From contig BJGX01000002.1 of the NCBI GenBank assembly GCA_014191035.1, positions 18,813 to 82,812 of the forward strand: DNA of 64,000 nt, read 5' to 3'. Source of the stretch: Candidatus Saccharimonadota bacterium (GTDB lineage Bacteria > Patescibacteriota > Saccharimonadia > CAILAD01 > BJGX01). This document shows, piece by piece, positions 1,743 to 57,775 of this stretch. Every line of letters starts with the position of its first letter. Within the stretch, counting starts at the first letter, position 1. The notes beneath the pieces were generated by a model. That model ran no database searches and was not told where the DNA came from. It worked only from the letters and a program-made list of their open reading frames with translations. Both the position numbers and the translations under genes were made by a program.

Positions 1743-2135
1743 GTGCGTAGAGCTTTGAGAGAGGTGTGGTTTAAAGTGCGATTCAAGCTTTTTGGTAATT
1801 CCGAAGCTGAATGGTGGTACAAAGTAAACCAGAACAGAAAGAATGCAGATTTTTCAAACCCAAGATCTGATCTTCGACCCAGCATGGGCAAACTCGCACC
1901 AACTCAAGAGCCCGACAGCTTTATCGATATCGATGAAGAGTCTGCAGAAAGAGTCTTCTTCGAAGAAGTAGATGAGCTAATTAATTCGGGAATCAGCGAA
2001 AATGATCTAGATGAAAAGCTTCTAGATCTGGCAGAAGAACTTTCGCTGGCACTCGAGGCCAAGAAATTGGCTGATTCAGAGACTAACGAAAGCCTTGGTT
2101 CATATTTTGAAGCAATGCATAAGTTTGGATACTGA
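1743..2135 (+). CDS. Hypothetical protein with an acidic C-terminus. GTG start.
   Basis: The ORF has an AGGAGA SD 6 nt upstream of the GTG, a promoter-like element upstream and a rho-independent terminator downstream. Confidence 0.45.
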   Translation: MRRALREVWFKVRFKLFGNSEAEWWYKVNQNRKNADFSNPRSDLRPSMGKLAPTQEPDSFIDIDEESAERVFFEEVDELINSGISENDLDEKLLDLAEELSLALEAKKLADSETNESLGSYFEAMHKFGY

Positions 2136-2156
2136 ACATAAATAAATTAGGGCTAA

Positions 2157-2187
2157 CTTCGCTGTAAATGCAGCGAAGATAGTTTTT
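2157..2187 (+). terminator. Rho-independent terminator: CTTCGCTG-taaatg-CAGCGAAG hairpin followed by a T-run.
   Basis: 8-bp perfect stem followed by AGTTTTT. Confidence 0.5.
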
Positions 2188-2267
2188 AACCAGGATGTAT
2201 TAATCTGGCGACGCCCGTCGTCAGTCAGTGCACCCTCACATCAACCGGGAGGTTGAAATGCCAAACA

Positions 2268-2935
2268 ATAATGACAATCTTAGTGGCTTTATCTCAACAC
2301 AGCAGAAGGTCAACACAGACCTGTTTGCTGCACGAGACGAGGCACGAGCTCGTATCAAGCAGATCACTTACCAGATCGATGAGCTGAAGCGTGTCGGCCG
2401 GGGTACGTCCCTTGCCAACAAGCGTGCAGCTCAGCTGGAGCGCAAGCTTCAGAAGATCGAGAGTGACTTCTCGGAGTACGGTGCAAGCAAGGCCGTGCTC
2501 AGCGAGCTTGCGAGGCTAGATACCTCGACCAAGAACCTCTATCTGGAGGTGGCTGGTCATGGTGATCGAATTCGTGCGTTGGAGCAGTCCGACGCTATGA
2601 AGATCGATTTCCAGAATTCCGGTGTTGAGGTCGCTCACACGACCGATGCAAAGTTCGACACCCCCTGGGTAGAGGCTTTCATCGTTGGTGCAGTGGCTTT
2701 CCTCCTGACCGCATTCGCGCTGAATGCGTGGATCGCTCAGGACTGGAACTTCAACAAGGACTTCTGGGCTAGCATCATCGTTGGCGCTGCGGCGTTCTTC
2801 GTGATGGCAAGCTTCGAGAAGCTTCGACTCGGTCTGCAAATTCAGGCCCGCCACGTGTGGGTCATGAAGGAGCAGCCCGCTGAGAACCAGCAGCCCTCTA
2901 CGGCTACTACTCAGCAGGATCGGGTCGACGCCTAA
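2268..2935 (+). CDS. GC-rich hypothetical membrane protein: N-terminal coiled-coil plus two C-terminal TM helices, with a Q-rich tail.
   Basis: GGGAGG SD 6 nt upstream of the ATG at 2268 (the ORF track starts at 2228). About 57% GC versus about 37% genome background. Hydrophobic segments AFIVGAVAFLLTAFALNAWI and IIVGAAAFFVMASF. Confidence 0.55.
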
Positions 2936-3105
2936 GTCGTTTAAAAGGGGCATGTCAACCTCATAAAAAACTGACCGTAATTCTCAGGGGAAGTTCCTGG
3001 GGGCTGTTGATCGATAAGCCGTCACTATCGATTGGGTACACATGTGCTAGCCCGCAATCGCGAAATAGCACACCTTATCCCAACCTGGGAGAGGAGGTGA
3101 GCTGA

Positions 3106-4086
3106 ATGGCTCACGTCAACGGAAAGCGCTTGGCAGGGGGTCTCTGTACCCTACTGCTTTTGTTCCTGCTCGTGGGTGGCATCAAGCAGGTGGTTTCCGA
3201 GCCACCGGCCGATGCAAATCCGCTTCCTCCCAAGGTTGCGGATTGCCCTGGGCCCGTTCACTACTTCCGGCATGACCTGCCGGTTGAGGTGAACCATTTC
3301 GGTCCAGCAGTTGGCGATGGCAACATCGACCTCGTTTTGGAGCAGCTCCACTACCGGCGCTGTGTGGATCCGGCACTGACGGTGGCTCACCGTCAGTACC
3401 AGGCCCGGAACTACACCAGCCCGGAAGAGAGGCTCTTTCAGACGGAAGGCTTGCAGGACAATCCCGAAGCGTGGGCACTGAATGTGCTTGCTCTGGAGGA
3501 GCGTGAAGCAACCGCCGTCAAGGTCGAAATTGTCGAAATGACGGAGTCTTACCAGACTCTTTACATGGTCGACACGCCTGTGCCGACCATCTATCAGGAT
3601 GTTGTTGACAGGCCGCAGTACAAGGTGATTCGCTTCACCTATGCTGACGGCTCAGTTGACAACCTCAAGCTCGACTGTGGCTTTCAGCCTGTCGAGCCTG
3701 TGTTTCCTGGTATTCCTGGACCCCCGGTGCCTGGTGGAAGCGTGACGCCTTCGGGCGACACACCAACACCAACGCCTGGCCCTGGTCCTCGGCCCAACCC
3801 GCCGACCACCTGTGACCCTCGGGTCTGCAAGGGGCCGGCACCGGCCACCCCACCGCCCTGTATCGACAACGCAGGAGTGCGTTGTACGGTGCAGCCAGGG
3901 GCTGGTGGTGAACCCGGTAAGGGGGGAGCCATTAACAGGGGCAGCGACGGGTACTCTCCGGAGGATCCGCCGCCCCCGACCTGGGTGGCACCGGCGCCAA
4001 CGCCGACGTCTGTGGTCACCGTGCCACCGACGACGGCATCGCCACCACCAAGCCAGAACCTTAACCCGGGAATGATTCCGGGCTAA
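3106..4086 (+). CDS. GC-rich secreted protein with signal peptide, conserved cysteines and a Pro/Thr-rich C-terminal half.
   Basis: GAGGAGG SD upstream of the ATG. N-terminal hydrophobic signal (LCTLLLLFLLVGG). Long PTPTPGPGPRPNPP...PPPPTWVAPAPTPT low-complexity region. High GC. Confidence 0.55.
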   Translation: MAHVNGKRLAGGLCTLLLLFLLVGGIKQVVSEPPADANPLPPKVADCPGPVHYFRHDLPVEVNHFGPAVGDGNIDLVLEQLHYRRCVDPALTVAHRQYQARNYTSPEERLFQTEGLQDNPEAWALNVLALEEREATAVKVEIVEMTESYQTLYMVDTPVPTIYQDVVDRPQYKVIRFTYADGSVDNLKLDCGFQPVEPVFPGIPGPPVPGGSVTPSGDTPTPTPGPGPRPNPPTTCDPRVCKGPAPATPPPCIDNAGVRCTVQPGAGGEPGKGGAINRGSDGYSPEDPPPPTWVAPAPTPTSVVTVPPTTASPPPSQNLNPGMIPG

Positions 4087-29691: not shown

Positions 29692-30726
29692 CTAATCCCA
29701 GTCCAGAGTTCCGCCGGTTTGGTACTCGATAACTCTAGTTTCAAAGAAGTTCTTTTCTTTGGAAAGATCGGCAGCTTCACTCATCCACGGGAATGGATTT
29801 TTGGTATGGAACTGCTTAGGTAGGCCAACCGATGCTAGGCGCCTATCGGCAACATGCTCGATGTATTGCTTGAAACCATCGGCGTTCATTCCAAAAATGC
29901 CATTAGGAAATACGTCCTGTGCGTAGCTGTATTCAAGCTTAGCAGCTTCCTTTACAAGATCTATAATGCGCTGCTGGAACTCATCGGTCCAAAGCTCGGG
30001 CTGTTCTTCTTTGATGGCATTGATCATGTTTATACCAAAGTTTAGATGCTGCGATTCGTCGCGCATGATGTATTGGATTTGCTCAGCACTACCTACTAGC
30101 TTGTTTTGACGCTGGAATCCAAAGATTACAGCAAAACTAGAGTAGAAGAATATACCTTCTAAAATTAACGAGAATACACACAAGTTCTCTAAAAATTTTT
30201 GGTCGTTTTCGAATGTACCGGTGTGGAAGTTATCATCAAAGATACCTTCGTTAAAAGTAAGGATAAACTTTGCTTTACTATAGTGTGAAGCGTTCTCGCG
30301 GTACATATTAAACACCTTGCCTCCATCAAGCCCCAAACTTTCAACGATGTATTGATAAGCATGTGTATGTATTGCTTCTTCGTAGGATTGCCGCAATAGG
30401 TACATTCGGCATTCTGGGCTTGATATGTGCTTATAGAATGCTAGCACTAAGTTATTGGCCGCAATCGAATCAGCGGTAGTGAAGAACCCTAGAGCAGTCT
30501 GGAAAGCTTGGCGTTCATCTTCGGTTAATTTATCGGACTTCCATAATTCGATATCGTCTTGCATGGCGATTTCGGTTGGTAGCCAGTGGTTGGCATTGCC
30601 AGCCAGGTAGGCGTCCCAGGCGAAATTATGCTTCATTGGGTGAAGCTGGATAACGTCTGCATCTTCGCCGTTAATTACTCTTCGTTTGTTGATGTCTGGT
30701 CGGACATCGGTCATCTTAAGTGACAT
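29692..30726 (-). CDS. nrdB: Ribonucleotide reductase class I small (beta) subunit.
   Basis: Di-iron ligand motifs (EEAIHTHAY ... EGIFFYSSFA ... RDESQHL). Confidence 0.9.
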   Translation of the reverse strand: MSLKMTDVRPDINKRRVINGEDADVIQLHPMKHNFAWDAYLAGNANHWLPTEIAMQDDIELWKSDKLTEDERQAFQTALGFFTTADSIAANNLVLAFYKHISSPECRMYLLRQSYEEAIHTHAYQYIVESLGLDGGKVFNMYRENASHYSKAKFILTFNEGIFDDNFHTGTFENDQKFLENLCVFSLILEGIFFYSSFAVIFGFQRQNKLVGSAEQIQYIMRDESQHLNFGINMINAIKEEQPELWTDEFQQRIIDLVKEAAKLEYSYAQDVFPNGIFGMNADGFKQYIEHVADRRLASVGLPKQFHTKNPFPWMSEAADLSKEKNFFETRVIEYQTGGTLDWD

Positions 30727-30747
30727 GTGTTACCCTCCTAATTTATT

Positions 30748-33459
30748 TTATTTTTCTTCGACACCTGCAGTAGTGGATTCACGCTTGTGAGTGGCTCCGA
30801 ACTCTGCTGTATCAACGGTTGATTTTTCGACTTGTGATATGGCCAAACTTCTTAGATAGTAAGTAGTCTTTAAGCCCTGTTCCCAGGCAGCCATGTAGAT
30901 ATCGCTTAGTTGCTTACCGCTAACGCCATGTACAAAGATATTAAAGCTCTGGCTTTGATCTATCCATTTACCTCGGTGGGCGGTAACTTTTACTAAGGTG
31001 AGCGGGTTAATTTCAAACACTTCCTTGTATTTGTTGCGTAACTTTTCTGGTATTTCTGTAATTTTCTGTATTGAACCATCGTGGAATTTAATCTTCTTAA
31101 CCATTGTGTCGTTCCACATGTTAAGTTTTTTAAGATCCTCAATTAGGTAAGAGTTGATTACCGTGAAGTCACCACTCATGTTGGATTTAACATATAGGTT
31201 CTTATAGATTGGCTCGATGCATGGGTAGCAGCCGGCGATGTTTGATATGGATGCGGTTGGTGCAATGGCCATGGTATTGGAGTTGCGCATACCGTGTTTT
31301 TTAACATGGGATTTAGCATATTTCCAATCTAATTTTCCACCACGCTTAACATCGATTTTGCGTCCACGCTCTTTTTCTAGCAAGTCCACGGTGTCGGCTG
31401 GGAAAATTCCGCGCTCCCATTTTGAGCCCTTAAAGCTCTTATAAGCCCCTCGCTCCTTGGCAAGCTTGCTTGAACCTAGAATTGCGTGGTAGCTAATAAG
31501 CTCCATTGATTCATCGGCAAATTCGACGGCCTTTGGCGAGTCAAAATTAATATCAAGCATATATAGGGCGTCCTGGAAGCCCATAATTCCTAAACCAACT
31601 GGGCGGTGTTTAAGGTTTGAGTTTTCACATTCCTTGGTGGTGTAGTAACAGATATCGACCACATTATCGAGCATTCTCATGGCAAGTTCGGTAGTATTTT
31701 CAATGAGCTCTTTATCTAACTTGCCAGCCTTGATGTGCTTGGCCATGTTAATCGAACCCAAGTTACACACTGCAGTTTCGTCGGCTGAGTTATTGAGGGT
31801 TATTTCGGTGCATAGGTTAGAGTTATGGATCACGCCCTGGTGGTCTTGAGGACTGCGTACGTTACATGCATCCTTGAAGGTTATCCATGGGTGGCCAGTT
31901 TCAAATAGCATTGTTAGCATTTTTCGCCATAGCTGTATTGCGGGTATTCTGCGGAATTGACTAATTTTGCCTTCATCAGCCATTTGCTCGTATTCTTCAT
32001 AACGTTTTTTAAAGGCCGCACCATATAGGTTGTGTAAGTCCGGTGTTTCGTCTGGGCTGAATAGTGTCCATGGCTCATCGTTAGACACACGATCCATAAA
32101 TAAGTCTGGCACCCAGTTGGCAGTATTCATGTCATGAGTACGACGGCGTTCGTCACCGGTGTTTTTACGAAGCTCCAAAAAGTCTTCGATATCCAGGTGC
32201 CAAGTTTCGAGATAAGCACAGGTTGCGCCCTTGCGCTTGCCAGAACGACTAATTGCAACTGTCGTATCGTTCATAATTTTTAGAAATGGTATAACGCCCT
32301 GTGATGGAATATTGACAGTCTTAATAAGTGATCCGGTAGCACGTATGTTTGACCAGTCGGTGGCGATACCGCCAGAGTATTTGCTCATTAAGGCGTTATC
32401 AAGATAAACCTTGAAGATATGTTTAAGATCATCCTCGACGGTATTTAAAAAGCATGAGCTAAGCTGAGGTTTACTAGTTCCGGAGTGAAAGAGGGTAGGA
32501 GTCGACGGAACGTAGCGAAGAGTGGAAAGTACATCATAAAATTCCATAGCCCATTTGTCCTTGTCTTTCTTTTCGGCGATTGCAAGGCCCATAGCTATGC
32601 GCATCCAGAATCCTTGTGGCACCTCGAGGCGTCGACCGCGGCCTTGTGACTGAATGAAGTAGCGGTCATGGAGCATATCTAAGCCCATAAAGTCGAGTAA
32701 TGTATCACGCTCAGGCTTGATATACTCGGCTAGTTTTTTAAGATCGAAGCTAAGCAAGCGTTTGTCTAGCCTTCCATCTTTGACGGTATCTTTAATAAAG
32801 CTAGTAAAGCTCTCTTGGTAAGTCTCGGATAGATTGCGCTTATAATCTTTACCTAAAACTTCTTTGTAGACCTTACGAAGCATCAAGCGCGCAGATAGCT
32901 GTGAATAAAGTGGATCAATCTCGATTTGTGACTTAGCAGCCATAATCATCGAGTCTTCCAGCTCATCATATGTAATGCCATCATAAATACTCCCTTTGAC
33001 CATCTGAGCGGTTTCATCTAGGTCAACGTCGTCGGCAATTTCATCAGCTGCCTCAATTAGGTCCTTTAAAAGTTTTGCATAGCTAAAGTTTTCTAAGCTT
33101 CCATCGGGCATGGTTACTTTTAGATTGCTTTGCTCAAGCTTTTCGGCTGAACGTGCAGCTTCGGCTTCACGCATAGCTTTGTGGGTGTCACGATAAATAA
33201 TAAATGCACGCACGGTCTTATAGTGGCCATCTTTCATTAGCTGTTGCTCAATAAGATCCTGAAGTGTTTCAACATCTGGAGTAGATTCGCTAAAAGCCTG
33301 TTCAGCTTGGATTATCACCTGATCTACAACTGATATTATGTCTTCTTTACTAGCTTCTCCGCCCGAACTATCACTAGCTTTGCCAATTGCTGTTTCGATT
33401 CGGCTGCGATCAAAATCAACCATTTGCCCATTACGTTTTTTTATTTGCTCAAAACTCAT
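30748..33459 (-). CDS. nrdA: Ribonucleotide reductase class I large (alpha) subunit with N-terminal ATP-cone.
   Basis: ATP-cone (KRNGQMVDFDRSRIETAI). Catalytic NLCTEI and C-terminal CYPC. Start set at the ATG at 33459, which has a perfect AGGAGG SD. The ORF track extends to 33528. Confidence 0.9.
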   Translation of the reverse strand: MSFEQIKKRNGQMVDFDRSRIETAIGKASDSSGGEASKEDIISVVDQVIIQAEQAFSESTPDVETLQDLIEQQLMKDGHYKTVRAFIIYRDTHKAMREAEAARSAEKLEQSNLKVTMPDGSLENFSYAKLLKDLIEAADEIADDVDLDETAQMVKGSIYDGITYDELEDSMIMAAKSQIEIDPLYSQLSARLMLRKVYKEVLGKDYKRNLSETYQESFTSFIKDTVKDGRLDKRLLSFDLKKLAEYIKPERDTLLDFMGLDMLHDRYFIQSQGRGRRLEVPQGFWMRIAMGLAIAEKKDKDKWAMEFYDVLSTLRYVPSTPTLFHSGTSKPQLSSCFLNTVEDDLKHIFKVYLDNALMSKYSGGIATDWSNIRATGSLIKTVNIPSQGVIPFLKIMNDTTVAISRSGKRKGATCAYLETWHLDIEDFLELRKNTGDERRRTHDMNTANWVPDLFMDRVSNDEPWTLFSPDETPDLHNLYGAAFKKRYEEYEQMADEGKISQFRRIPAIQLWRKMLTMLFETGHPWITFKDACNVRSPQDHQGVIHNSNLCTEITLNNSADETAVCNLGSINMAKHIKAGKLDKELIENTTELAMRMLDNVVDICYYTTKECENSNLKHRPVGLGIMGFQDALYMLDINFDSPKAVEFADESMELISYHAILGSSKLAKERGAYKSFKGSKWERGIFPADTVDLLEKERGRKIDVKRGGKLDWKYAKSHVKKHGMRNSNTMAIAPTASISNIAGCYPCIEPIYKNLYVKSNMSGDFTVINSYLIEDLKKLNMWNDTMVKKIKFHDGSIQKITEIPEKLRNKYKEVFEINPLTLVKVTAHRGKWIDQSQSFNIFVHGVSGKQLSDIYMAAWEQGLKTTYYLRSLAISQVEKSTVDTAEFGATHKRESTTAGVEEK

Positions 33460-33483
33460 TTCACCCTCCTTATTGGTATTTAT

Positions 33484-33531
33484 GTCTGTATATAGTGTTT
33501 TAAAGCTCTTATGCACCACTATATACATGCT
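33484..33531 (-). promoter_or_regulatory. Candidate tandem NrdR boxes upstream of nrdAB.
   Basis: Two inverted copies of a CACTATATACAG-type half-palindrome, at 33486-33497 and 33518-33530. TATATA cores are 31 bp apart, matching known NrdR-box phasing. Located 25-70 nt upstream of the nrdA start. Confidence 0.4.
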
Positions 33532-43486: not shown

Positions 43487-43882
43487 ATGGAATATGGTTC
43501 TTGGTATTCGAGACAAAAAAAGCCCTCCTGGGCGCCACCAGAAATTGCCTTTGGCCAAGTATGGAGCATTTTGTATCCTATAATATTTGCTGTCAATATT
43601 TATGTTTTCTATCTTTTAAGCAAGGGTCAAATAAGCTGGCGGGTAGCATTGCCATTCTGGCTTAATTTGTTTTTTAATTTTGCTTTTTCACCACTTCAAT
43701 TTGTGCTGAGATCGCAGATTTTATCATCTATTGATATCGTTCTAGTCTTAATAACTACCATATGGTGCATTATTGCCATTTGGCCATATAGCAAATTAGC
43801 CTCTATTGCTTTCGTTCCGTATTTGATATGGGTTACGATTGCTTCAGTTTTACAAATTTCAATAACTGTACTTAATAGATAG
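43487..43882 (+). CDS. tspO: TspO/MBR-family (tryptophan-rich sensory protein) membrane protein, short form.
   Basis: Family N-terminal signature: KKPSWAPP, then 6 residues, FGQVWSILY, then W-rich helices. Confidence 0.7.
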   Translation: MEYGSWYSRQKKPSWAPPEIAFGQVWSILYPIIFAVNIYVFYLLSKGQISWRVALPFWLNLFFNFAFSPLQFVLRSQILSSIDIVLVLITTIWCIIAIWPYSKLASIAFVPYLIWVTIASVLQISITVLNR

Positions 43883-43938
43883 TTTATAGTTGTTATGCTA
43901 AAATTATAATTATTATTTAATGGGAACTAATTAAAGTT

Positions 43939-44712
43939 ATGCAAGCAAAAACCATACAAGGTAAAAAACTTCAGAAATTAAACCTCATTATGGGTTTAAT
44001 TCATCTTGCGCAGGCAGGCATACTGTTTGTTATTCTTAACTATTCATTTAAGATACCAATCCTAACTAGGTTTTTTGATACCACCCCTGGCGGTGGATTT
44101 ACGGTAATTACTGAGCGACTTTGGGATGTGCCAATTGCAGTTATAGCGCCTATTTTCTTACTTATAGCGGCATTCTTCCACCTTTTAATTGCATCACCGC
44201 TATATATTCGTCGCTACGAACAAAACATTAAAAATGGAATTAACCCAATACGCTGGTGGGAATACTCAATTAGCTCCTCTTTGATGCTAGTCGGTTTAAT
44301 GATGATGGCCGGACTCACCGAGCTTCCAAGTGTTGTGTTTGTCTTTACCCTTAACTGGATAATGAACATGATGGGCTTAATGATGGAGCGCTATAACCAG
44401 CTGACCGATAAAACAAAATGGTTCCCGTATAACATTGGGGTGGTTGCGGGCTTGGTTCCTTGGATAATTGGATTTATATACTTCTGGGTAAATACCAATA
44501 ACATTTCCGAATCTATTCCTTCTTGGGCCAAGATCGGCTTTATTATTACTTTCCTATTCTTTAATACCTTTGCTGTTAATATGTTCTTGCAGTATAAAAA
44601 GGTCGGGAAGTGGAAAAATTACGTTTATGGAGAGCGTGGTTACATTTGGCTAAGTTTGATTGCCAAGTCTGTACTAGCCTGGATAATCGTCTTGGGAACA
44701 CTAAATCAGTAG
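43939..44712 (+). CDS. Heliorhodopsin (7-TM retinal protein with inverted topology).
   Basis: Colinear match to the prototype heliorhodopsin 48C12 as recalled. TM1: GLIHLAQAGILFV. TM3: FHLLIASP..RRYE...NPIRWWEYSISSSLM, including the counter-ion Glu. TM5: GLVPWIIGFIYF. TM6: FLFFNTFAVNMFLQYKKVGKWKNY. TM7: GERGYIWLSLIAKSVLAW, with the Schiff-base Lys. Confidence 0.85.
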   Translation: MQAKTIQGKKLQKLNLIMGLIHLAQAGILFVILNYSFKIPILTRFFDTTPGGGFTVITERLWDVPIAVIAPIFLLIAAFFHLLIASPLYIRRYEQNIKNGINPIRWWEYSISSSLMLVGLMMMAGLTELPSVVFVFTLNWIMNMMGLMMERYNQLTDKTKWFPYNIGVVAGLVPWIIGFIYFWVNTNNISESIPSWAKIGFIITFLFFNTFAVNMFLQYKKVGKWKNYVYGERGYIWLSLIAKSVLAWIIVLGTLNQ

Positions 44713-44718
44713 GGGCTT

Positions 44719-45387
44719 ATGGGTACATCAGCTAATCTAGTTCAGGCAATCTTCATAACCCTCAATATTGTTGGCTTTGGATATTTAGCCTATAAATTCA
44801 TTTCTAGTAAAAGCTCAACAGCCAAAATATTTGGTTACGGAATGGCTCTTCTAGCTTTTGTAGAATTTTGTGTGCTGGGTGTAAATATGTTGTGGACTAT
44901 ACCTGTTTTAGATTTTAAATCCTTGCAGTATCTTTTCTATCTGTATGCAATACTAGTCTTATTTGCTACGTCTGCGGCCTCTCTTAAGCCAAGAACAAGG
45001 TACTACATTAATATATTTTTAGCTTTTGCAGCCATTTTAGTTTCTGGCCTATTCTTTTTAGAAAGGACTTTGAACAACGCAACAGCATACACAATAAATT
45101 ATTATCTGTCCTTTGATAATCCTGCTACCCTAAATATTTTCAGCCTGACTGTGGCATTGTCGCTTGGTATGGCAGCTCTGGTGGTAGCACAATATTTTAA
45201 AGATCGAAGCCTTAAATTGGCTTTAGAATTGGGCTATTTGATAGTAACTATATCTTTGGTAATTAGTCTGATTGTATTTAACGACACTATAAGATTAATC
45301 AGCAGTATTGCTCAGCTCGGTTCTCTTCTGGCCATGTCGTTATACATCTATAAAAACCCAGCAGAATTCCAAAAACTCAAAAGATAA
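44719..45387 (+). CDS. Uncharacterised 7-TM membrane protein, 5 nt downstream of the heliorhodopsin gene.
   Basis: Seven hydrophobic helices predicted by eye. No Lys in the last helix and no type-1 rhodopsin motifs. The ATG start follows the HeR stop almost immediately. Confidence 0.5.
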   Translation: MGTSANLVQAIFITLNIVGFGYLAYKFISSKSSTAKIFGYGMALLAFVEFCVLGVNMLWTIPVLDFKSLQYLFYLYAILVLFATSAASLKPRTRYYINIFLAFAAILVSGLFFLERTLNNATAYTINYYLSFDNPATLNIFSLTVALSLGMAALVVAQYFKDRSLKLALELGYLIVTISLVISLIVFNDTIRLISSIAQLGSLLAMSLYIYKNPAEFQKLKR

Positions 45388-46132: not shown

Positions 46133-46786
46133 ATGGGGCCAAAAAAAATTCCAGGAAGTTACGATCATGAAATCAACAAAAGCTATATGTGGAGATGGTT
46201 GTTTGTCATTATAATATTGGTAGTTGCTGTCAGCCTGGGAGCCTTTATTTTATTAAGGCCAAAACAGCAAAGCACCAAAACCGGACAAGATTTAAATAAC
46301 AGCATTAGCTCTTATGAAAATCGTTATGTCGGTAAAAAGATAGAATATAATTTGGCCAACATACAAAACGACTGGAACAAGATCAGTGGTGAGGGCGGTT
46401 CTAACTACAAATTAGATGAGTCGTCTTGCACATCAAGTTTGCTTTCTTCAGATAATGTAAAAAGCTTAATTAATTCTGGTTCTACTCTAGCAAGTGCAAT
46501 CAACAAACAGCTTGAAGAAACAAAAGATTCATCACCTGATAAAACCATCATTATAGGTAATACCTACAGTGCTAATCTATCTTCCAACAAAGGAGATCTG
46601 GAGTTCATGATAAAAGATGCTGATTATAAGGCCGCAGATGGCACGTCTCACAAAATAAAAATTTATGGTCAGTGGATCGGCGACTACCAGCTTTTTATTA
46701 GGCAAGAGTGCACAGTAGGTGATTTCAATAATTCAAAAGAAAAGCTCGAATCATTTATTGATAGATTGGCGATAATAGTAAACTAG
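46133..46786 (+). CDS. Membrane-anchored or secreted hypothetical protein.
   Basis: The ATG at 46133 follows the terminator. The ORF track's longer 46019 start would read through that terminator. N-terminal TM helix (WLFVIIILVVAVSLGAFILL). Confidence 0.5.
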   Translation: MGPKKIPGSYDHEINKSYMWRWLFVIIILVVAVSLGAFILLRPKQQSTKTGQDLNNSISSYENRYVGKKIEYNLANIQNDWNKISGEGGSNYKLDESSCTSSLLSSDNVKSLINSGSTLASAINKQLEETKDSSPDKTIIIGNTYSANLSSNKGDLEFMIKDADYKAADGTSHKIKIYGQWIGDYQLFIRQECTVGDFNNSKEKLESFIDRLAIIVN

Positions 46787-47202
46787 TTTAGTTTGCCCAG
46801 CCGATACTCTGATAGTAAAGCGTCTGCATTTGAAGAGTGCCTACCTTCGCCGCCCTTATTATTATAGGCAGAGGTGGCATCCTTTCCGCAGTAAGTCAGA
46901 ATTAAGTCAGCGCCACCTGGGTGTTCATCGAGATAGCTTGTAACATCATAAACATTGCCCCTAATTGCTACCCAGCAATCACTAGATTTATTATGTTTAG
47001 ATAGTTCGGTAGTTGATATTGTCTTTTCATCAATTGCTACTTCTTCTTCAGCTGGCTGTTGCTGTGTGTTTTGATCTACTTTTTCGTCTATTTTTTCTTC
47101 CACAGCATTTTCCTTATTCTGGCTATCGATAAATCCCCAAACAAACATTCCGCTCATAAGCACAGCAACAATAATCAAAACAACTGCAACAACCTTTTTC
47201 AT
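46783..47202 (-). CDS. Membrane-anchored cytochrome b5-like haem-binding domain protein.
   Basis: N-terminal TM helix. b5 fold signature (HNKSSDCWVAIRGNVYDVTSYLDEHPGGADLIL...GKDATSAY). Confidence 0.75.
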   Translation of the reverse strand: MKKVVAVVLIIVAVLMSGMFVWGFIDSQNKENAVEEKIDEKVDQNTQQQPAEEEVAIDEKTISTTELSKHNKSSDCWVAIRGNVYDVTSYLDEHPGGADLILTYCGKDATSAYNNKGGEGRHSSNADALLSEYRLGKLN

Positions 47203-48512
47203 GACAAGTTAAACTCCTCGGTATTTATATTCTTATTTTTTACTCTCTTTTGCTTAAGCTGTCTTTTGATAGCCTTCATCATGGCCGATGGTCCACAAAT
47301 CATAAAGTTTGCATCCTCTAAGTTTTTGCTCTTTTCAAAGATTATATCGGCGCTTAAAAAACCATCTTTGTCTTCGAAATAAGTTATCAGATTAAAATTA
47401 CTCTTCTGCTTATCTAACGCTTCAAGCTCGGCCAGGTAAAAAGCATCTTGCTTGGTTTTTAAGGCATAATATAAATCAATTTGCTGAGTTTCGTCTGCAG
47501 ATTTAGCCATTGACATAAATGGAGTTACACCTATACCGCCAGCTATCCAAATCTGCCTACTATTTTTTACAACCTTGTTAGAAAATGTACCGTATGGACC
47601 ATCTATCTTAAAGGTTGTGCCTTTTTCAGCACCCTCTAGGGCAGCTGTAAAATCACCCAGCGCCTTTATACCAAACTTTAGTTTACTTTCGTCTGGTGAA
47701 GAACTCATCGAGAAAGGATGGGATTCACCTAAAAGGCCTTTGCTGTCTTGTTTTATAAAAGCATACTGGCCCGGCACAAAATTTAATTTATCGCCGATTG
47801 GACTTAAAACAATTTCATAAATACTTCCTGATTTACGAATGTCGTCGAGTTTATATTCATAGAATTTAGCAAAATTGCCGTGGAATATTGAACGATATAC
47901 GTAAACTATTAAAGCCATCGCTATTAACACGGCAAAGTATATTTGTAAGCTCAAAATCCCATTACCTCTAAAGCCTAGGTTACTACCGCCGACAAAGACA
48001 GCATGAATCGCACCTACAAACAGTATCAAACCAAGTAGCCGCTGAGCCAAAATGAAAAACTTATAAGAAACCTTGATATACAAGGTGACTATAATTGCCA
48101 GTACCATTCCAAATAAGGCAATGCTTCCCAGGGCCCTGAATGGCGATAACAGGTTGGGTTTTAAAAATTCAAAGGCCGAATTAGGAGAAATTAAAAAATA
48201 TCGAATAGTTAAAAATAGGGGGTGCAACAATAGCAGTATAAAAGCTATCGATCCGATGTTGTGATGCGCTCGGTAGGTGTTATCTAGGCCATGAAACATT
48301 CTATTATATATTTTGAATCTGGCACTGAGTATTACGGCCCAGGCAAAAAGAGCCATACCAGCAAGACCCGCTAGCTTACCTAGACTCTGGAATATGTTTT
48401 GGGCGCCATCCCAATCTAGCGGCATCGCAATTAGCCACAGAATCACGGGGGTAAGAGCAATGATAACCGTAAGATATCCGCCCGGATTAAAGTATTTTCT
48501 TCGACTATTCAT
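47199..48512 (-). CDS. NOX/FRE-family flavocytochrome: ferric-reductase 6-TM domain plus FAD- and NAD(P)H-binding domains.
   Basis: TM His pair spaced 14 residues (AHHNIG...LLLHP). FAD motif HPFSMSS. NAD(P)H motif AGGIGVTPF. C-terminal CGP motif. Overlaps the b5 gene by 4 nt. Confidence 0.8.
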   Translation of the reverse strand: MNSRRKYFNPGGYLTVIIALTPVILWLIAMPLDWDGAQNIFQSLGKLAGLAGMALFAWAVILSARFKIYNRMFHGLDNTYRAHHNIGSIAFILLLLHPLFLTIRYFLISPNSAFEFLKPNLLSPFRALGSIALFGMVLAIIVTLYIKVSYKFFILAQRLLGLILFVGAIHAVFVGGSNLGFRGNGILSLQIYFAVLIAMALIVYVYRSIFHGNFAKFYEYKLDDIRKSGSIYEIVLSPIGDKLNFVPGQYAFIKQDSKGLLGESHPFSMSSSPDESKLKFGIKALGDFTAALEGAEKGTTFKIDGPYGTFSNKVVKNSRQIWIAGGIGVTPFMSMAKSADETQQIDLYYALKTKQDAFYLAELEALDKQKSNFNLITYFEDKDGFLSADIIFEKSKNLEDANFMICGPSAMMKAIKRQLKQKRVKNKNINTEEFNLS

Positions 48513-48562
48513 AAAAAATATTATAACAAATAAAAAACATCAAAGTATAACCTTGATGTTGT

Positions 48563-48910
48563 TTATAGTAGATCCAGCGGCCACATGAATTTGGGCTCTA
48601 GAATTTCTTCTTTGCACTTTTCGATTTCTGAATTTTTTACAATGTAGAGCTCTACAGTGGTCGGGAAAAGCAGCTTATTGTTCAGTAAAAACCTGTCATA
48701 ACATTCTTTGTAGTCTTCTCGAGAGTTAACTTCCTGAGTTAGTGGTACAAACGAATGAATATCCATCTCAAAGACCATATCAGCAATCAAAGAGTATTCT
48801 CTTGATATTTTTGGCTTCTTCTTTGGGGGATCACCCAGGTAGATTCCTAAATTCCTTACAAAGCTTTGTTCAAAAAAGGTTCTTCCATCGATTATCGTTT
48901 TTGTGTACAA
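48563..48910 (-). CDS. Hypothetical protein, first gene of the apparent NOX operon.
   Basis: ORF only. Confidence 0.4.
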   Translation of the reverse strand: MYTKTIIDGRTFFEQSFVRNLGIYLGDPPKKKPKISREYSLIADMVFEMDIHSFVPLTQEVNSREDYKECYDRFLLNNKLLFPTTVELYIVKNSEIEKCKEEILEPKFMWPLDLL

Positions 48911-54497: not shown

Positions 54498-54764
54498 TCA
54501 CTTACCCCCTGGGTGGTCCTCAATTTTGCAATTTTTAACAATGAATGTCCCAACGGCATATAATTCAAAACATTGATATTCTCCAGCTAAAAAGTCTTTG
54601 TAGTGCATCTCGTAGTCAAAAAAGTGGCTTACATCAATTGCTGTAACACTTTTCTTTGTTTCTAAAATTACTATCAAGCTTTGATCGGGAAGTACCCTTG
54701 GTGCGTGTCTTGGAGGATTCGGAATGTACCTACCAAGATTTTGTATCAAGCTTGGCTTATACAT
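54498..54764 (-). CDS. Hypothetical small protein.
   Basis: ORF only. Start is uncertain. Confidence 0.3.
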   Translation of the reverse strand: MYKPSLIQNLGRYIPNPPRHAPRVLPDQSLIVILETKKSVTAIDVSHFFDYEMHYKDFLAGEYQCFELYAVGTFIVKNCKIEDHPGGK

Positions 54765-54824
54765 CCGACCTCCTTTTAAGGTGCGCCGTGGCGATATTGT
54801 CCCACTTTTTAAGTTGTTTTTCAA

Positions 54825-56473: not shown

Positions 56474-57718
56474 TTATTGGTACTGAACTTTATATATAAG
56501 GTTTTGCTTATCATCACTTATATACATGTTGCCTGCAGGGTCAAAGCCAACACCAACCGGACGTCCCCAGGCGCCACTGCCATCTAGCCAGCCAGTAATA
56601 AAATTATATTCTTTCATTGGGTTAGATTTGGTATCTACCCAAATCACTTTATAGCCAGTCGGAACGGTTCGGTTCCAGGATCCGTGCATCGCACCAAAAA
56701 ATCCGTTTTCAAATACATTTGGCCAGGTCTGTTTGGCAGCCTCGTTTTCAAATGTAATCCCAAGAGGGGCGTAGTGAGCCTGAAGGCCAAGTACAGGGCC
56801 AGCAGTTTGGGCTTTACAATATTCAGCCTTATCTTTGTATTCAGGGTTATTTATTTTATCGCCATAACAGTAAGGCCAGCCATAATTTTTACCTTGCTCA
56901 ATAATATTTACTTCCTCTGGTGGGATATCATCGCCAATTTGGTCTCGCCCCATGTCTAAGCCCCAAAGTTTGCCTTCGTTAAATGTAAAGCCCACGGTGT
57001 TACGAAGCCCGCTAGCATAAATTTCTCCGCCAGTTCCATCGAGATTATAGCGCATTATTGTTGCTCTGCGATTGTCATTTTCAATACAGACATTACATGA
57101 TGATCCGATAGATACATACATTTTATTATCGGGCCCAATTACGACTGTACGGGTAGTGTGGCCGCCGCCCGTGAGCTTACTTCCGCCAGGCAAATTATCA
57201 ACCAAAACTTCTTTTTTAGAATATGTTCCATTGCTTTTAATGCCGCGATACACACTGACTCTTGTCTGTTCGGCTAGGTATAAATCGCCATTATAATAAT
57301 AAACCGAGTGTGGTGTGTTAAGTTTGCTCTCTATTACAACCGGCGTGCCGGCTGTGCCATTATTGTCTGGAATAGCGTATATACTATCGCCGGTGTTACT
57401 ACCAACAAACATCGTGCCATCGGGTGCAAATGTAAAGAATCTCGCGCCCTTAATGTTTGTGGCATAAATACTTATTTTAAAGCCCGCTGGGGCATATAAT
57501 GTTTTACCACCGACACTTTGGGCAACCAAATTAAATGGCGCTTCAAGTTGGTTTTGATTGTTCTCATTAACTTGCTGTTGGCTCAATTTGCCACTCAAAA
57601 ATGCCGTATTATTAATTACCCAATAAATCACATATCCAATTGCAGATAGCAAAATTATTGCTATAACTAACAGCGCAACATTTCTTTTATTGTGATTTTT
57701 GCTTTTGGATTTAGCCAT
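56474..57718 (-). CDS. Soluble quinoprotein glucose/sorbosone dehydrogenase-like beta-propeller protein with N-terminal TM anchor.
   Basis: Family-typical N-terminal blades (LYAPAGFKISIYA...FTFAPDGTMFVG). Start at the ATG at 57718 is uncertain; the ORF track uses 57754. Confidence 0.65.
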   Translation of the reverse strand: MAKSKSKNHNKRNVALLVIAIILLSAIGYVIYWVINNTAFLSGKLSQQQVNENNQNQLEAPFNLVAQSVGGKTLYAPAGFKISIYATNIKGARFFTFAPDGTMFVGSNTGDSIYAIPDNNGTAGTPVVIESKLNTPHSVYYYNGDLYLAEQTRVSVYRGIKSNGTYSKKEVLVDNLPGGSKLTGGGHTTRTVVIGPDNKMYVSIGSSCNVCIENDNRRATIMRYNLDGTGGEIYASGLRNTVGFTFNEGKLWGLDMGRDQIGDDIPPEEVNIIEQGKNYGWPYCYGDKINNPEYKDKAEYCKAQTAGPVLGLQAHYAPLGITFENEAAKQTWPNVFENGFFGAMHGSWNRTVPTGYKVIWVDTKSNPMKEYNFITGWLDGSGAWGRPVGVGFDPAGNMYISDDKQNLIYKVQYQ

Positions 57719-57775
57719 AAGTTTATTATAACATCTCAAATAAAGCCCAAGCATGAAAAATCATGTAAAGAAAAA

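Follow-up and report, generated by a model that had tools for sequence, protein, structure and literature searches.

A NOX-type flavocytochrome and a membrane-tethered cytochrome b5 encoded by overlapping genes in Candidatus Saccharibacteria: a putative module for transmembrane electron export

Locus and transcription unit

A 64-kb stretch of contig BJGX01000002.1 from a Candidatus Saccharibacteria genome (hereafter the window, that is, the whole of the DNA analysed) carries on its minus strand two overlapping genes for redox proteins. The first (47199-48512) encodes a 437-aa flavocytochrome in which a ferric reductase domain is joined to a ferredoxin-NADP+ reductase-type dehydrogenase (FRD-FNR), as in NADPH oxidases (NOX) and the homologue of Streptococcus pneumoniae (SpNOX); the second (46783-47202) encodes a 139-aa cytochrome b5. 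The reductase was assigned from its open reading frame (ORF), Pfam matches, alignment to SpNOX and an AlphaFold2 (AF2) model searched with Foldseek, and the b5 protein from its ORF, Pfam, a match to the solved structure 1cxy, AF2/Foldseek and a charge bias around its membrane helix. A public entry annotated as "membrane protein [Candidatus Saccharibacteria bacterium]" (P0001) matches the 437-aa protein with 100% identity. As read from the sequence, the stop codon of the reductase gene and the start codon of the b5 gene share the tetranucleotide ATGA (47199-47202, minus strand), which suggests translational coupling, and the same 4-nt overlap (gap -3) is found at many related loci.

A preliminary description of this DNA placed three minus-strand ORFs here, with the 4-nt overlap between the last two, and all of them lie where it put them. 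It also took the upstream 115-aa ORF (48563-48910, minus strand; supported as an ORF only) to complete the operon, a view that we abandoned. Directly 3' of the stop codon of this ORF, at the upstream border of the two-gene unit, lies a terminator-like hairpin of 11 pairs followed by the T-run TTTTATTTGT (48536-48560, minus strand). Beyond it, an extended -10 promoter-like element, TGTTATAAT (48520-48528, minus strand; read directly from the sequence, its function being putative), ends 7 nt upstream of the reductase ATG. Since the -10 element ends so close to the ATG and no Shine-Dalgarno sequence was seen ahead of it, the reductase transcript may be leaderless or nearly so. The 115-aa ORF has a promoter-like element of its own (TTGACT-17-CATAAT), yields zero matches in Pfam or NCBIfam, and recurs only beside the 97%-identical copy (locus L004), apart from a weakly similar paralogue (E 1e-6) at 54498-54824 of the minus strand, some 6 kb distant within the window. 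With the hairpin between it and the reductase gene, no family match and no conservation, it was rejected as a member of the unit. Because the hairpin and the extended -10 element separate the 115-aa ORF from the reductase gene and the recurrence of this ORF is minimal, we conclude that the transcription unit comprises two genes rather than three, as indicated by consensus matches, which are no proof.

Domains and fold of the reductase

The 437-aa protein matches Ferric_reduct (residues 48-167; 38.2 bits against a gathering score of 28), FAD_binding_8 (34.3 against 22), NAD_binding_1 (53.3 against 22), and NAD_binding_6 (24 against 22.2). In NCBIfam it hits only FNR-family equivalogs far below their thresholds, for example BenC with 89 bits against a cutoff of 430. 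Its best solved relative by sequence is SpNOX (E 3e-30 over residues 48-427, approximately 24% identity), and the fold agrees: the confident AF2 model (pLDDT 89.3, pTM 0.83) retrieves the SpNOX structures 8qt6, 8qta, and 8qq7 as top Foldseek matches (E 5e-24, TMq 0.77, TMt 0.84), with DUOX1, NOX2, and NOX5 ranking next. The dehydrogenase domain also matches NADH-cytochrome b5 reductases, both by sequence (2eix, E 8e-10) and by fold (2eix and 7rom). The assignment as a flavocytochrome of the NOX/ferric-reductase type, made beforehand from the sequence, is thus borne out, with the Ferric_reduct, FAD_binding_8, and NAD_binding_6 families, and Cyt-b5 for the partner, all above their gathering scores.

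Hydropathy and DSSP analysis of the model delimit a six-helix transmembrane (TM) haem domain at aa 10-212 (47877-48485, minus strand), with helices at residues 10-29, 36-62, 76-108, 124-145, 150-173, and 187-209. The outer loop between TM3 and TM4 contains a short conserved helix (110-117) and the conserved residues Y105, S109, A113, F116, and P119. The beta/alpha dehydrogenase domain that follows, predicted to be cytoplasmic, spans aa 218-437 (47202-47861, minus strand), as delimited by Pfam, invariant columns, and published motif definitions (PMC5676040). It contains the conserved FAD motif HPFSM at 265-269 (HPFS at 265-268), the NAD(P)H motif GIGVTP at 326-331 (GGIGVTP at 325-331), a conserved CGP at 406-408, and an invariant C-terminal aromatic residue, Phe434. 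All the motifs that had been picked out initially, namely AHHNIG (with His83/84), LLLHP (with His97), HPFS, GGIGVTP, and CGP, are present, and most of their residues are invariant in an alignment of 41 sequences.

Eukaryotic NOX proteins have a further histidine four positions after the outer-haem histidine of TM3 (His115/His119 in NOX2). The equivalent position 101 is Leu, Ile, Val, or Met in 118 of 118 homologues and never His, so that the eukaryotic-type O2-reduction centre, a two-His/Arg/propionate site which SpNOX is also without (PMC11564096), is incomplete in this family. Of the features by which Hajjar et al. 2017 (PMC5676040) delineated bacterial NOX, the reductase has the six TM helices with a C-terminal dehydrogenase domain, the TM3 bis-His pair, the HPFSM/GIGVTP motifs, and the NOX fold. 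It does not have the TM5 bis-His pair, and hence the four haem histidines, which more distant relatives do possess; with Gln in place of His as the inner ligand of TM5, it would not pass the four-His filter that defines bacterial NOX.

Haem ligands of the transmembrane domain

In SpNOX, the inner haem is ligated by His69 and His129 and the outer haem by His83 and His142 (PMC11564096). When the reductase is aligned to SpNOX, three of these four histidines are retained: His83 in TM3 (codon 48264-48266) corresponds to His69 of the inner site, and His97 in TM3 (48222-48224) and His170 in TM5 (48003-48005) correspond to His83 and His142 of the outer site, all on the minus strand and all invariant in 118 homologues. 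The spacing of His83 and His97 agrees with the His-X12/14-His pattern. The position of His129, the second inner-haem ligand, is occupied in TM5 by Gln157 (48042-48044, minus strand), and the alignment is anchored here by the conserved Arg immediately after position 157. The early impression of only one clearly spaced His pair in the TM domain was therefore accurate, the pair being that of TM3, with His170 as the sole counterpart in TM5.

Of the 118 homologues, 53 have Gln at position 157, 47 have His, and 18 have Met. The Gln and Met residues cluster in the closest sequences, those of Saccharibacteria, with His in more distant relatives; a separate high-GC clade also has Gln at 157, together with Arg at position 84. 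Judging from the alignment, the ligand that is absent is the one that TM5 would give to the inner site, on the cytoplasmic side. Departures from the four-His rule at this site have been described for MsrQ and STEAP, in which the inner His of TM3 is replaced by Arg and a flavin takes the place of the inner haem, and STEAP has Gln at exactly the TM5 position equivalent to Gln157 (PMC12525009). The reductase shares with this subgroup the non-His residue at the inner position of TM5 and not the His-to-Arg change in TM3, as His83 is kept. Its sequence therefore combines His83, as in NOX, with Gln157, as in STEAP, and is in this sense a hybrid.

Most likely, the inner site retains a haem with altered ligation or potential. 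We favour a retained haem because the enzyme has its own FAD domain, because some cofactor must bridge the FAD to the outer haem, and because Met, a classical haem ligand, replaces Gln in a sister subclade. As natural variants of the NOX fold, the family provides His-to-Gln and His-to-Met changes at the inner haem site.

The cytochrome b5 partner and its side of the membrane

The 139-aa protein matches Cyt-b5 (PF00173) over residues 65-138 with 89.8 bits against a gathering score of 23.7 (E 1e-25). Its axial ligands, His94 of the HPGG motif (codon 46921-46923) and His122 (46837-46839), both on the minus strand, are invariant across 25 bacterial, plant, and insect sequences, and both align to 1cxy, the b558 of Ectothiorhodospira vacuolata, which is the closest solved b5 (E 4e-17 by sequence, TMt 0.94). 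In the AF2 model, a helix (residues 2-35) leads into a disordered, acidic stretch (36-60) and then into the b5 domain (60-139; pLDDT >90), which superposes on rat, bovine, and bacterial b5 structures with a root mean square deviation of about 1.1 A in Foldseek; the N-terminal TM helix comprises aa 1-28. Thus, the membrane-anchored HPGG protein recognized in the preliminary description is a genuine, classical bis-His cytochrome b5 that is predicted to bind haem.

Every b5 partner found at related loci begins with a hydrophobic helix, and its flanks differ in charge, with a mean of +3.15 on the N-terminal and -0.1 on the C-terminal side (N>C in 38 of 40). Because the positive charge lies N-terminal of the helix, an N-in/C-out orientation is predicted. 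The architectures of the partners point the same way, since the tandem b5 domains, PKD/Ig domains, Cys-rich segments, and Pro/Thr-rich linkers that they display (the latter about 200 residues long at locus L057) are typical of exported proteins. The closest solved b5, b558, is bacterial and soluble, which we also count in favour of this orientation. Collectively, these features predict that the b5 domain lies outside the cell.

Natural fusions of the reductase provide a parallel. In one relative (P0300), the reductase is extended by a seventh TM helix and, C-terminally, by a CxxCH cytochrome c domain (PF13442, E 5e-13), and in another (P0285) by a TM helix and an unknown C-terminal domain of about 190 aa; in both, the equivalent of position 157 is Gln and positions 83/84 are His-Arg. 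As c-type cytochromes mature only outside the cytoplasm, P0300 carries a covalently tethered extracytoplasmic haem acceptor, and by analogy the logic of this arrangement would be the same as that of the separate b5. Fusions of the reductase to b5 were found neither among the matches listed nor in the six longer hits of the representative search that were scanned.

The b5 partners on DPANN contigs (L044:5200-5721, Woesearchaeota; L071:5179-5688, Pacearchaeota) end in poly-acidic tails, DDEEDEEDDDEEDD and DDDEEEDD, that are absent from the Saccharibacteria proteins.

Conservation of the gene pair

The reductase family is large. An exhaustive search of representatives recovered 987 clusters at E<=1e-30, and a genome scan at least 586 confirmed relatives, of which the best 80 are dominated by records from the Candidate Phyla Radiation (CPR) and DPANN. 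Such a flavocytochrome is consequently not the oddity in a minimal organism for which it was initially taken, the more so as its co-location with b5 genes in CPR had already been reported (bioRxiv 10.1101/2021.11.17.468889). For the analysis of neighbourhoods, we used the 80 loci with the most similar relatives and additional loci from contig look-ups, and scanned their ORFs with a hidden Markov model (HMM) built from b5 hits.

In 40 of 84 related loci, an ORF matching the strict HMM lies immediately downstream of the reductase gene on the same strand, at distances of -61 to +50 nt and often with the identical 4-nt overlap. In 10 further Saccharimonadales loci, the b5 position is occupied by an N-anchored protein with PKD/Ig domains and a diverged b5-like domain; in the four of these that were searched with Pfam, the Cyt-b5 match is sub-threshold (E 0.004-0.24). 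In total, a b5 or b5-like gene directly follows the reductase gene in about 50 of the 84 loci, among them contigs of CPR, DPANN, and some Actinomycetota, and two partners contain tandem b5 domains. Outside CPR, the pair occurs on a 486-kb contig of Pacearchaeota (L071), a Woesearchaeota contig, a 1.4-Mb contig of Acidimicrobiales (L057), and a Dehalococcoidia contig; it should be noted that the taxon labels of metagenome-assembled genomes may be wrong for short contigs. Unbiased clustering of the neighbours revealed no other real gene family of comparable recurrence, the next being DUF4352 (15 loci) and an ABC ATPase (11 loci), and no transporter, reductase, or oxidase recurs near the related loci. 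The conserved overlap and synteny argue for a joint function of the two proteins.

Several loci have a richer organization. In eight loci of Saccharimonadales (L017, L019, L021, L038, L040, L030, L031, and L045), a longer series of genes on the same strand runs from the reductase to the N-anchored PKD/Ig protein with the diverged b5-like domain, an N-anchored DUF4352 protein, and a surface protein of 700-840 aa with DUF5979/PKD repeats, which suggests that in this taxonomic order the module is embedded in a cell-surface apparatus. The large downstream proteins are Ig/PKD/DUF5979 surface proteins in which no catalytic domain was found. Just upstream of the main reductase gene, on the opposite strand, three loci (L022, L031, and L045) encode a second, divergent reductase paralogue scoring about 170-200 bits against the family HMM. 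Downstream of the reductase, two further loci (L023:1467-2159 and L055:5313-6464) encode N-anchored proteins with a Cys/His segment (…CLYI.NGKVYEKGT…SPH…), Pro/Thr-rich repeats, and a C-terminal TM helix; they have no match in Pfam and may correspond to the atypical "b5-like" proteins of an earlier preprint (bioRxiv 10.1101/2021.11.17.468889). A Saccharibacteria homologue of 52% identity, with Met at position 157, is followed by an overlapping ORF of only 60 aa that contains no b5 domain (L002:6290-6472 and L003:2991-3173) and may be a remnant of the partner or its replacement.

Proposed electron path and alternative explanations

We think it fairly probable that the locus is a two-gene transmembrane electron-export module of Candidatus Saccharibacteria. 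The domains, motifs, folds, gene overlap, synteny, charge-based topology, and the cytochrome c fusion of a relative were computed; cofactor occupancy, the direction of electron flow, the place of b5 as the direct acceptor, and the physiological role are inferred. In the path that we propose, the cytoplasmic FNR-type domain would take a hydride from NAD(P)H onto FAD, and single electrons would then cross the membrane through two stacked cofactor sites of the six-helix ferric-reductase domain, namely an inner site at His83/Gln157, presumably holding a haem of altered ligation or potential, and an outer bis-His haem at His97/His170. The b5 domain, held on the outer face by its N-terminal helix and an acidic, flexible linker of about 25-35 residues, would bind where the outer haem is exposed, take over the electron, and deliver it to an external acceptor, for which O2, Fe(III) or other metal chelates, quinones, and a surface or host protein are candidates. 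Overall, cytoplasmic NAD(P)H would be re-oxidized in an organism whose 64-kb window shows no respiratory chain. Regeneration of NAD(P)+, handling of O2 or other oxidants, and metal reduction are candidate roles, as is an MsrQ-type function, which the preliminary description named beside O2/ROS handling and metal reduction.

This path fits what has been reported for SpNOX, because that enzyme has a highly solvent-exposed outer haem and directly reduces cytochrome c, and because its authors consider a protein acceptor possible and question whether O2 is the acceptor in vivo (PMC11564096). Comparably, proteins combining PF01794 with NAD_binding_1 pair with extracytosolic flavinylated carriers (PMC8238504).

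Several points weigh against the proposed path. About 30 of 83 related loci contain no recognizable b5 partner within 3.5 kb, so that the reductase can evidently work without b5, and since the 80 loci were selected for highest similarity, the frequency of synteny is biased towards CPR. The fourth haem ligand is missing, with Gln157 in its place, so that the inner site may hold no haem. The predicted topology of b5 has as its basis the positive-inside rule together with the architecture of the partners. Genes for a terminal acceptor, an iron transporter, or a reductase partner were found neither within ±10 kb or elsewhere in the window nor among the recurrent neighbours. Finally, an extracytoplasmic b5 would need a route of haem delivery, a demand that weighs most if the organism cannot make haem, as is assumed for CPR.

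Among the alternatives, the same wiring could serve an assimilatory surface metal reductase, in which Fe(III) or Cu(II) chelates are reduced at the haem edge of b5 for uptake, as by yeast FRE and STEAP. The TM domain does belong to the Pfam family Ferric_reduct, a subset of MsrQ-like PF01794 clusters is linked to the VIT1 iron transporter (PMC8238504), Fe3+ and copper have been listed among the possible substrates (bioRxiv 10.1101/2021.11.17.468889), and the poly-acidic tails of some DPANN partners could bind cations. However, no iron or copper transporter recurs in the 83 loci or is present within ±10 kb here, and SpNOX reduces ferric iron slowly (kcat 0.05 s-1), an activity considered probably without physiological role (PMC11564096); we regard this purpose as unlikely. 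Somewhat harder to accept is an autonomous NAD(P)H oxidase, with the reductase alone producing superoxide or H2O2 at its outer haem and b5 off the path, perhaps binding or delivering haem for an organism unable to make it. SpNOX oxidizes NADPH in an O2-dependent manner in vitro (PMC5676040, PMC11564096), roughly one-third of the family loci are without a b5 gene, the organism meets O2 to judge from the O2-dependent class I ribonucleotide reductase encoded in the window, and haem-chaperone roles have been speculated for b5-type proteins of CPR (bioRxiv 10.1101/2021.11.17.468889). Against this stand the conserved overlap and synteny, which speak for a joint function, the cytochrome c-fused relative, which speaks for a protein acceptor, and the residue at position 101, which leaves the eukaryotic O2 centre incomplete. 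Moreover, a bis-His b5 holds its haem tightly, a property that suits a carrier better than a chaperone.

If b5 instead lay inside the cell, the FNR-type domain could reduce it directly, as in a cytoplasmic b5-reductase/b5 pair, and the TM domain would have another purpose. The matches of the dehydrogenase domain to NADH-cytochrome b5 reductases (2eix and 7rom) would be in keeping with such a pair; this likeness, however, is general to the dehydrogenase domains of all NOX, as both groups belong to the FNR family. A cytoplasmic b5 is further at odds with the positive-inside bias of 38 of 40 partners, with their PKD/Ig domains, Pro/Thr-rich linkers, and tandem b5 domains typical of export, and with the relative in which a c-type cytochrome follows an extra TM helix, which together make this arrangement highly improbable. 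The suggestion in the preliminary description that the separately encoded b5 supplies a second haem, missing from a TM domain with an incomplete His pair, fared worst. It has in its favour that Gln157 stands in the place of the fourth haem ligand. When the related loci are compared, however, those with b5 have His at position 157 in 31, Gln in 7, and Met in 2 cases, and the others in 33, 6, and 2 cases, respectively, so that b5 is as frequent beside four-His reductases (31 loci) as beside the Gln/Met forms (9 loci) and its presence shows no correlation with residue 157; compensation for a missing membrane haem is therefore removed as a reason for the pairing. In addition, the gap is at the inner, cytoplasm-side site whereas b5 is predicted to be outside, and a soluble b5 domain cannot fill an intramembrane site, leaving next to no room for this explanation.

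For bacterial NOX homologues, the family offers genetically designated candidate acceptors, namely a co-translated, surface-tethered b5 or, in one relative, a fused cytochrome c, so that two small genes suffice for a direct test of the acceptor question. The family is also relevant to the NAD(P)H balance of CPR and DPANN organisms without respiratory chains. A bolder and rather doubtful extension would be that the inner site of the Saccharibacteria-type and, independently, of an actinobacterial-type clade that includes P0300 houses a His/Gln- or His/Met-ligated haem of shifted potential or even a STEAP/MsrQ-like flavin within a single-chain enzyme of the NOX type, and that the pair is the main NAD(P)+-regenerating chain for extracellular electron export in respiration-less CPR and DPANN episymbionts, possibly to the surface of the host. 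Were it true, bacterial NOX homologues would gain the kind of natural protein acceptor that has long been sought for them.

Relation to known systems

The locus adds to a known but uncharacterized kind of gene cluster, as the pairing has already been reported. A preprint found PF01794 "pFre" genes in 1,427 of 7,645 CPR genomes, 185 of which had a PF00173 gene within 10 kb, and proposed a CPR-specific membrane complex of unknown function (bioRxiv 10.1101/2021.11.17.468889). The present locus shows the same association, with PF01794 and PF00173 genes within 10 kb in a CPR genome. The focus of the preprint was on a Tyr-ligated, MAPR-like cytochrome (cytb5MY), two atypical b5-like proteins, and a two-component system; compared with the ancestral form proposed there, our locus is minimal, with one classical bis-His b5 and no cytb5MY, and within ±10 kb of the module there is no histidine kinase or response regulator, only a GGDEF protein. 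The preprint made no link to NOX or SpNOX, gave neither topology nor direction of electron flow, and reported the pairing from CPR only (bioRxiv 10.1101/2021.11.17.468889); other papers on CPR merely list cytochrome b5 among orphan electron carriers (PMC8080830). Our analysis adds the SpNOX-fold assignment, the predicted outside topology of b5, the cytochrome c fusion, Gln and Met at the inner site, and the occurrence beyond CPR, and removes the 115-aa ORF. Because the pairing had been reported in CPR and its function is still only proposed, the advance is a sharper, testable model rather than a discovery.

With SpNOX (PDB 8qq7 and 8qt6) and the bacterial NOX of Hajjar et al. 2017, the reductase shares the single chain of six TM helices with FAD and NAD(P)H domains and the same fold. 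Three of the four haem histidines, the FAD/NADPH motifs, and the C-terminal aromatic residue are common to SpNOX and the reductase, and both are without long extracellular loops and the His of the eukaryotic O2 centre. Unlike SpNOX, for which no partner is known, the reductase has Gln as its inner TM5 ligand, a longer conserved outer loop between TM3 and TM4, and a dedicated, co-encoded b5. The MsrQ-like flavinylation systems (Méheust et al. 2021) and MsrPQ of Escherichia coli follow the same logic, with a ferric-reductase-domain conduit, often fused to a NAD-binding domain, leading to an extracytoplasmic redox partner. There, electrons go to an ApbE-flavinylated FMN-binding protein or to the molybdoenzyme MsrP, whereas here the partner is a b-type cytochrome, and no apbE, FMN-binding, or msrP gene was detected by Pfam within ±10 kb or among the recurrent neighbours. 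STEAP1-4 and MsrQ, which have a single haem and a flavin, likewise break the four-His rule at the inner site, and the STEAP Gln coincides with Gln157; in these proteins, however, the inner His of TM3 is Arg, whereas the reductase keeps His83 and, having its own C-terminal FAD/NAD(P)H domain, does not require a second membrane flavin.

The eukaryotic NADH-cytochrome b5 reductase and its b5 also are an FNR-family reductase and a membrane-anchored bis-His b5 acting as a redox pair, but they reside on one side of the membrane and that b5 is anchored C-terminally, whereas the b5 described here is anchored N-terminally and is predicted to lie across the membrane from the flavin domain, with the haems in between. 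E. vacuolata b558 (1cxy) shares with it the bacterial-type insertion before the second His ligand; b558, however, is soluble and has no known dedicated reductase, whereas the b5 of the window is membrane-tethered and operonic with the reductase.

Genomic surroundings

Convergent with the reductase-b5 unit and approximately 1.4-3.3 kb from it, a row of plus-strand genes (43487-45387) begins with one for a TspO/MBR tetrapyrrole-binding membrane protein (43487-43882). It continues with genes for a heliorhodopsin (43939-44712; Pfam E 7e-82) and for a multi-pass membrane protein of 222 aa (44719-45387). A heliorhodopsin gene, about 2 kb from the module here, is also found beside reductase homologues at two other loci (L001, 67% identity and likewise at about 2 kb; L064, 32%, same strand), and with only 3 of 84 loci we regard the linkage as unproven. 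About 8 kb from the module, a pyrroloquinoline quinone (PQQ)-type glucose/sorbosone dehydrogenase (GSDH, AA12-like) is encoded at 56474-57754 on the minus strand; the natural electron acceptors of such enzymes are often b-type cytochromes. The large and small subunits of a class I (O2-dependent, di-iron) ribonucleotide reductase are encoded at 29692-33528 on the minus strand, indicating that the organism lives with oxygen.

Positions 2001-4000 of the window stand out by a GC content of 0.56, compared with about 0.39 elsewhere, and may represent a horizontally acquired segment. The ORFs at 2228-2935 and 3106-4086 have no match in Pfam; the latter encodes a signal-anchored, Pro-rich, Cys-containing protein. 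The remaining genes of the window are housekeeping genes, and Rfam identifies a single tRNA.

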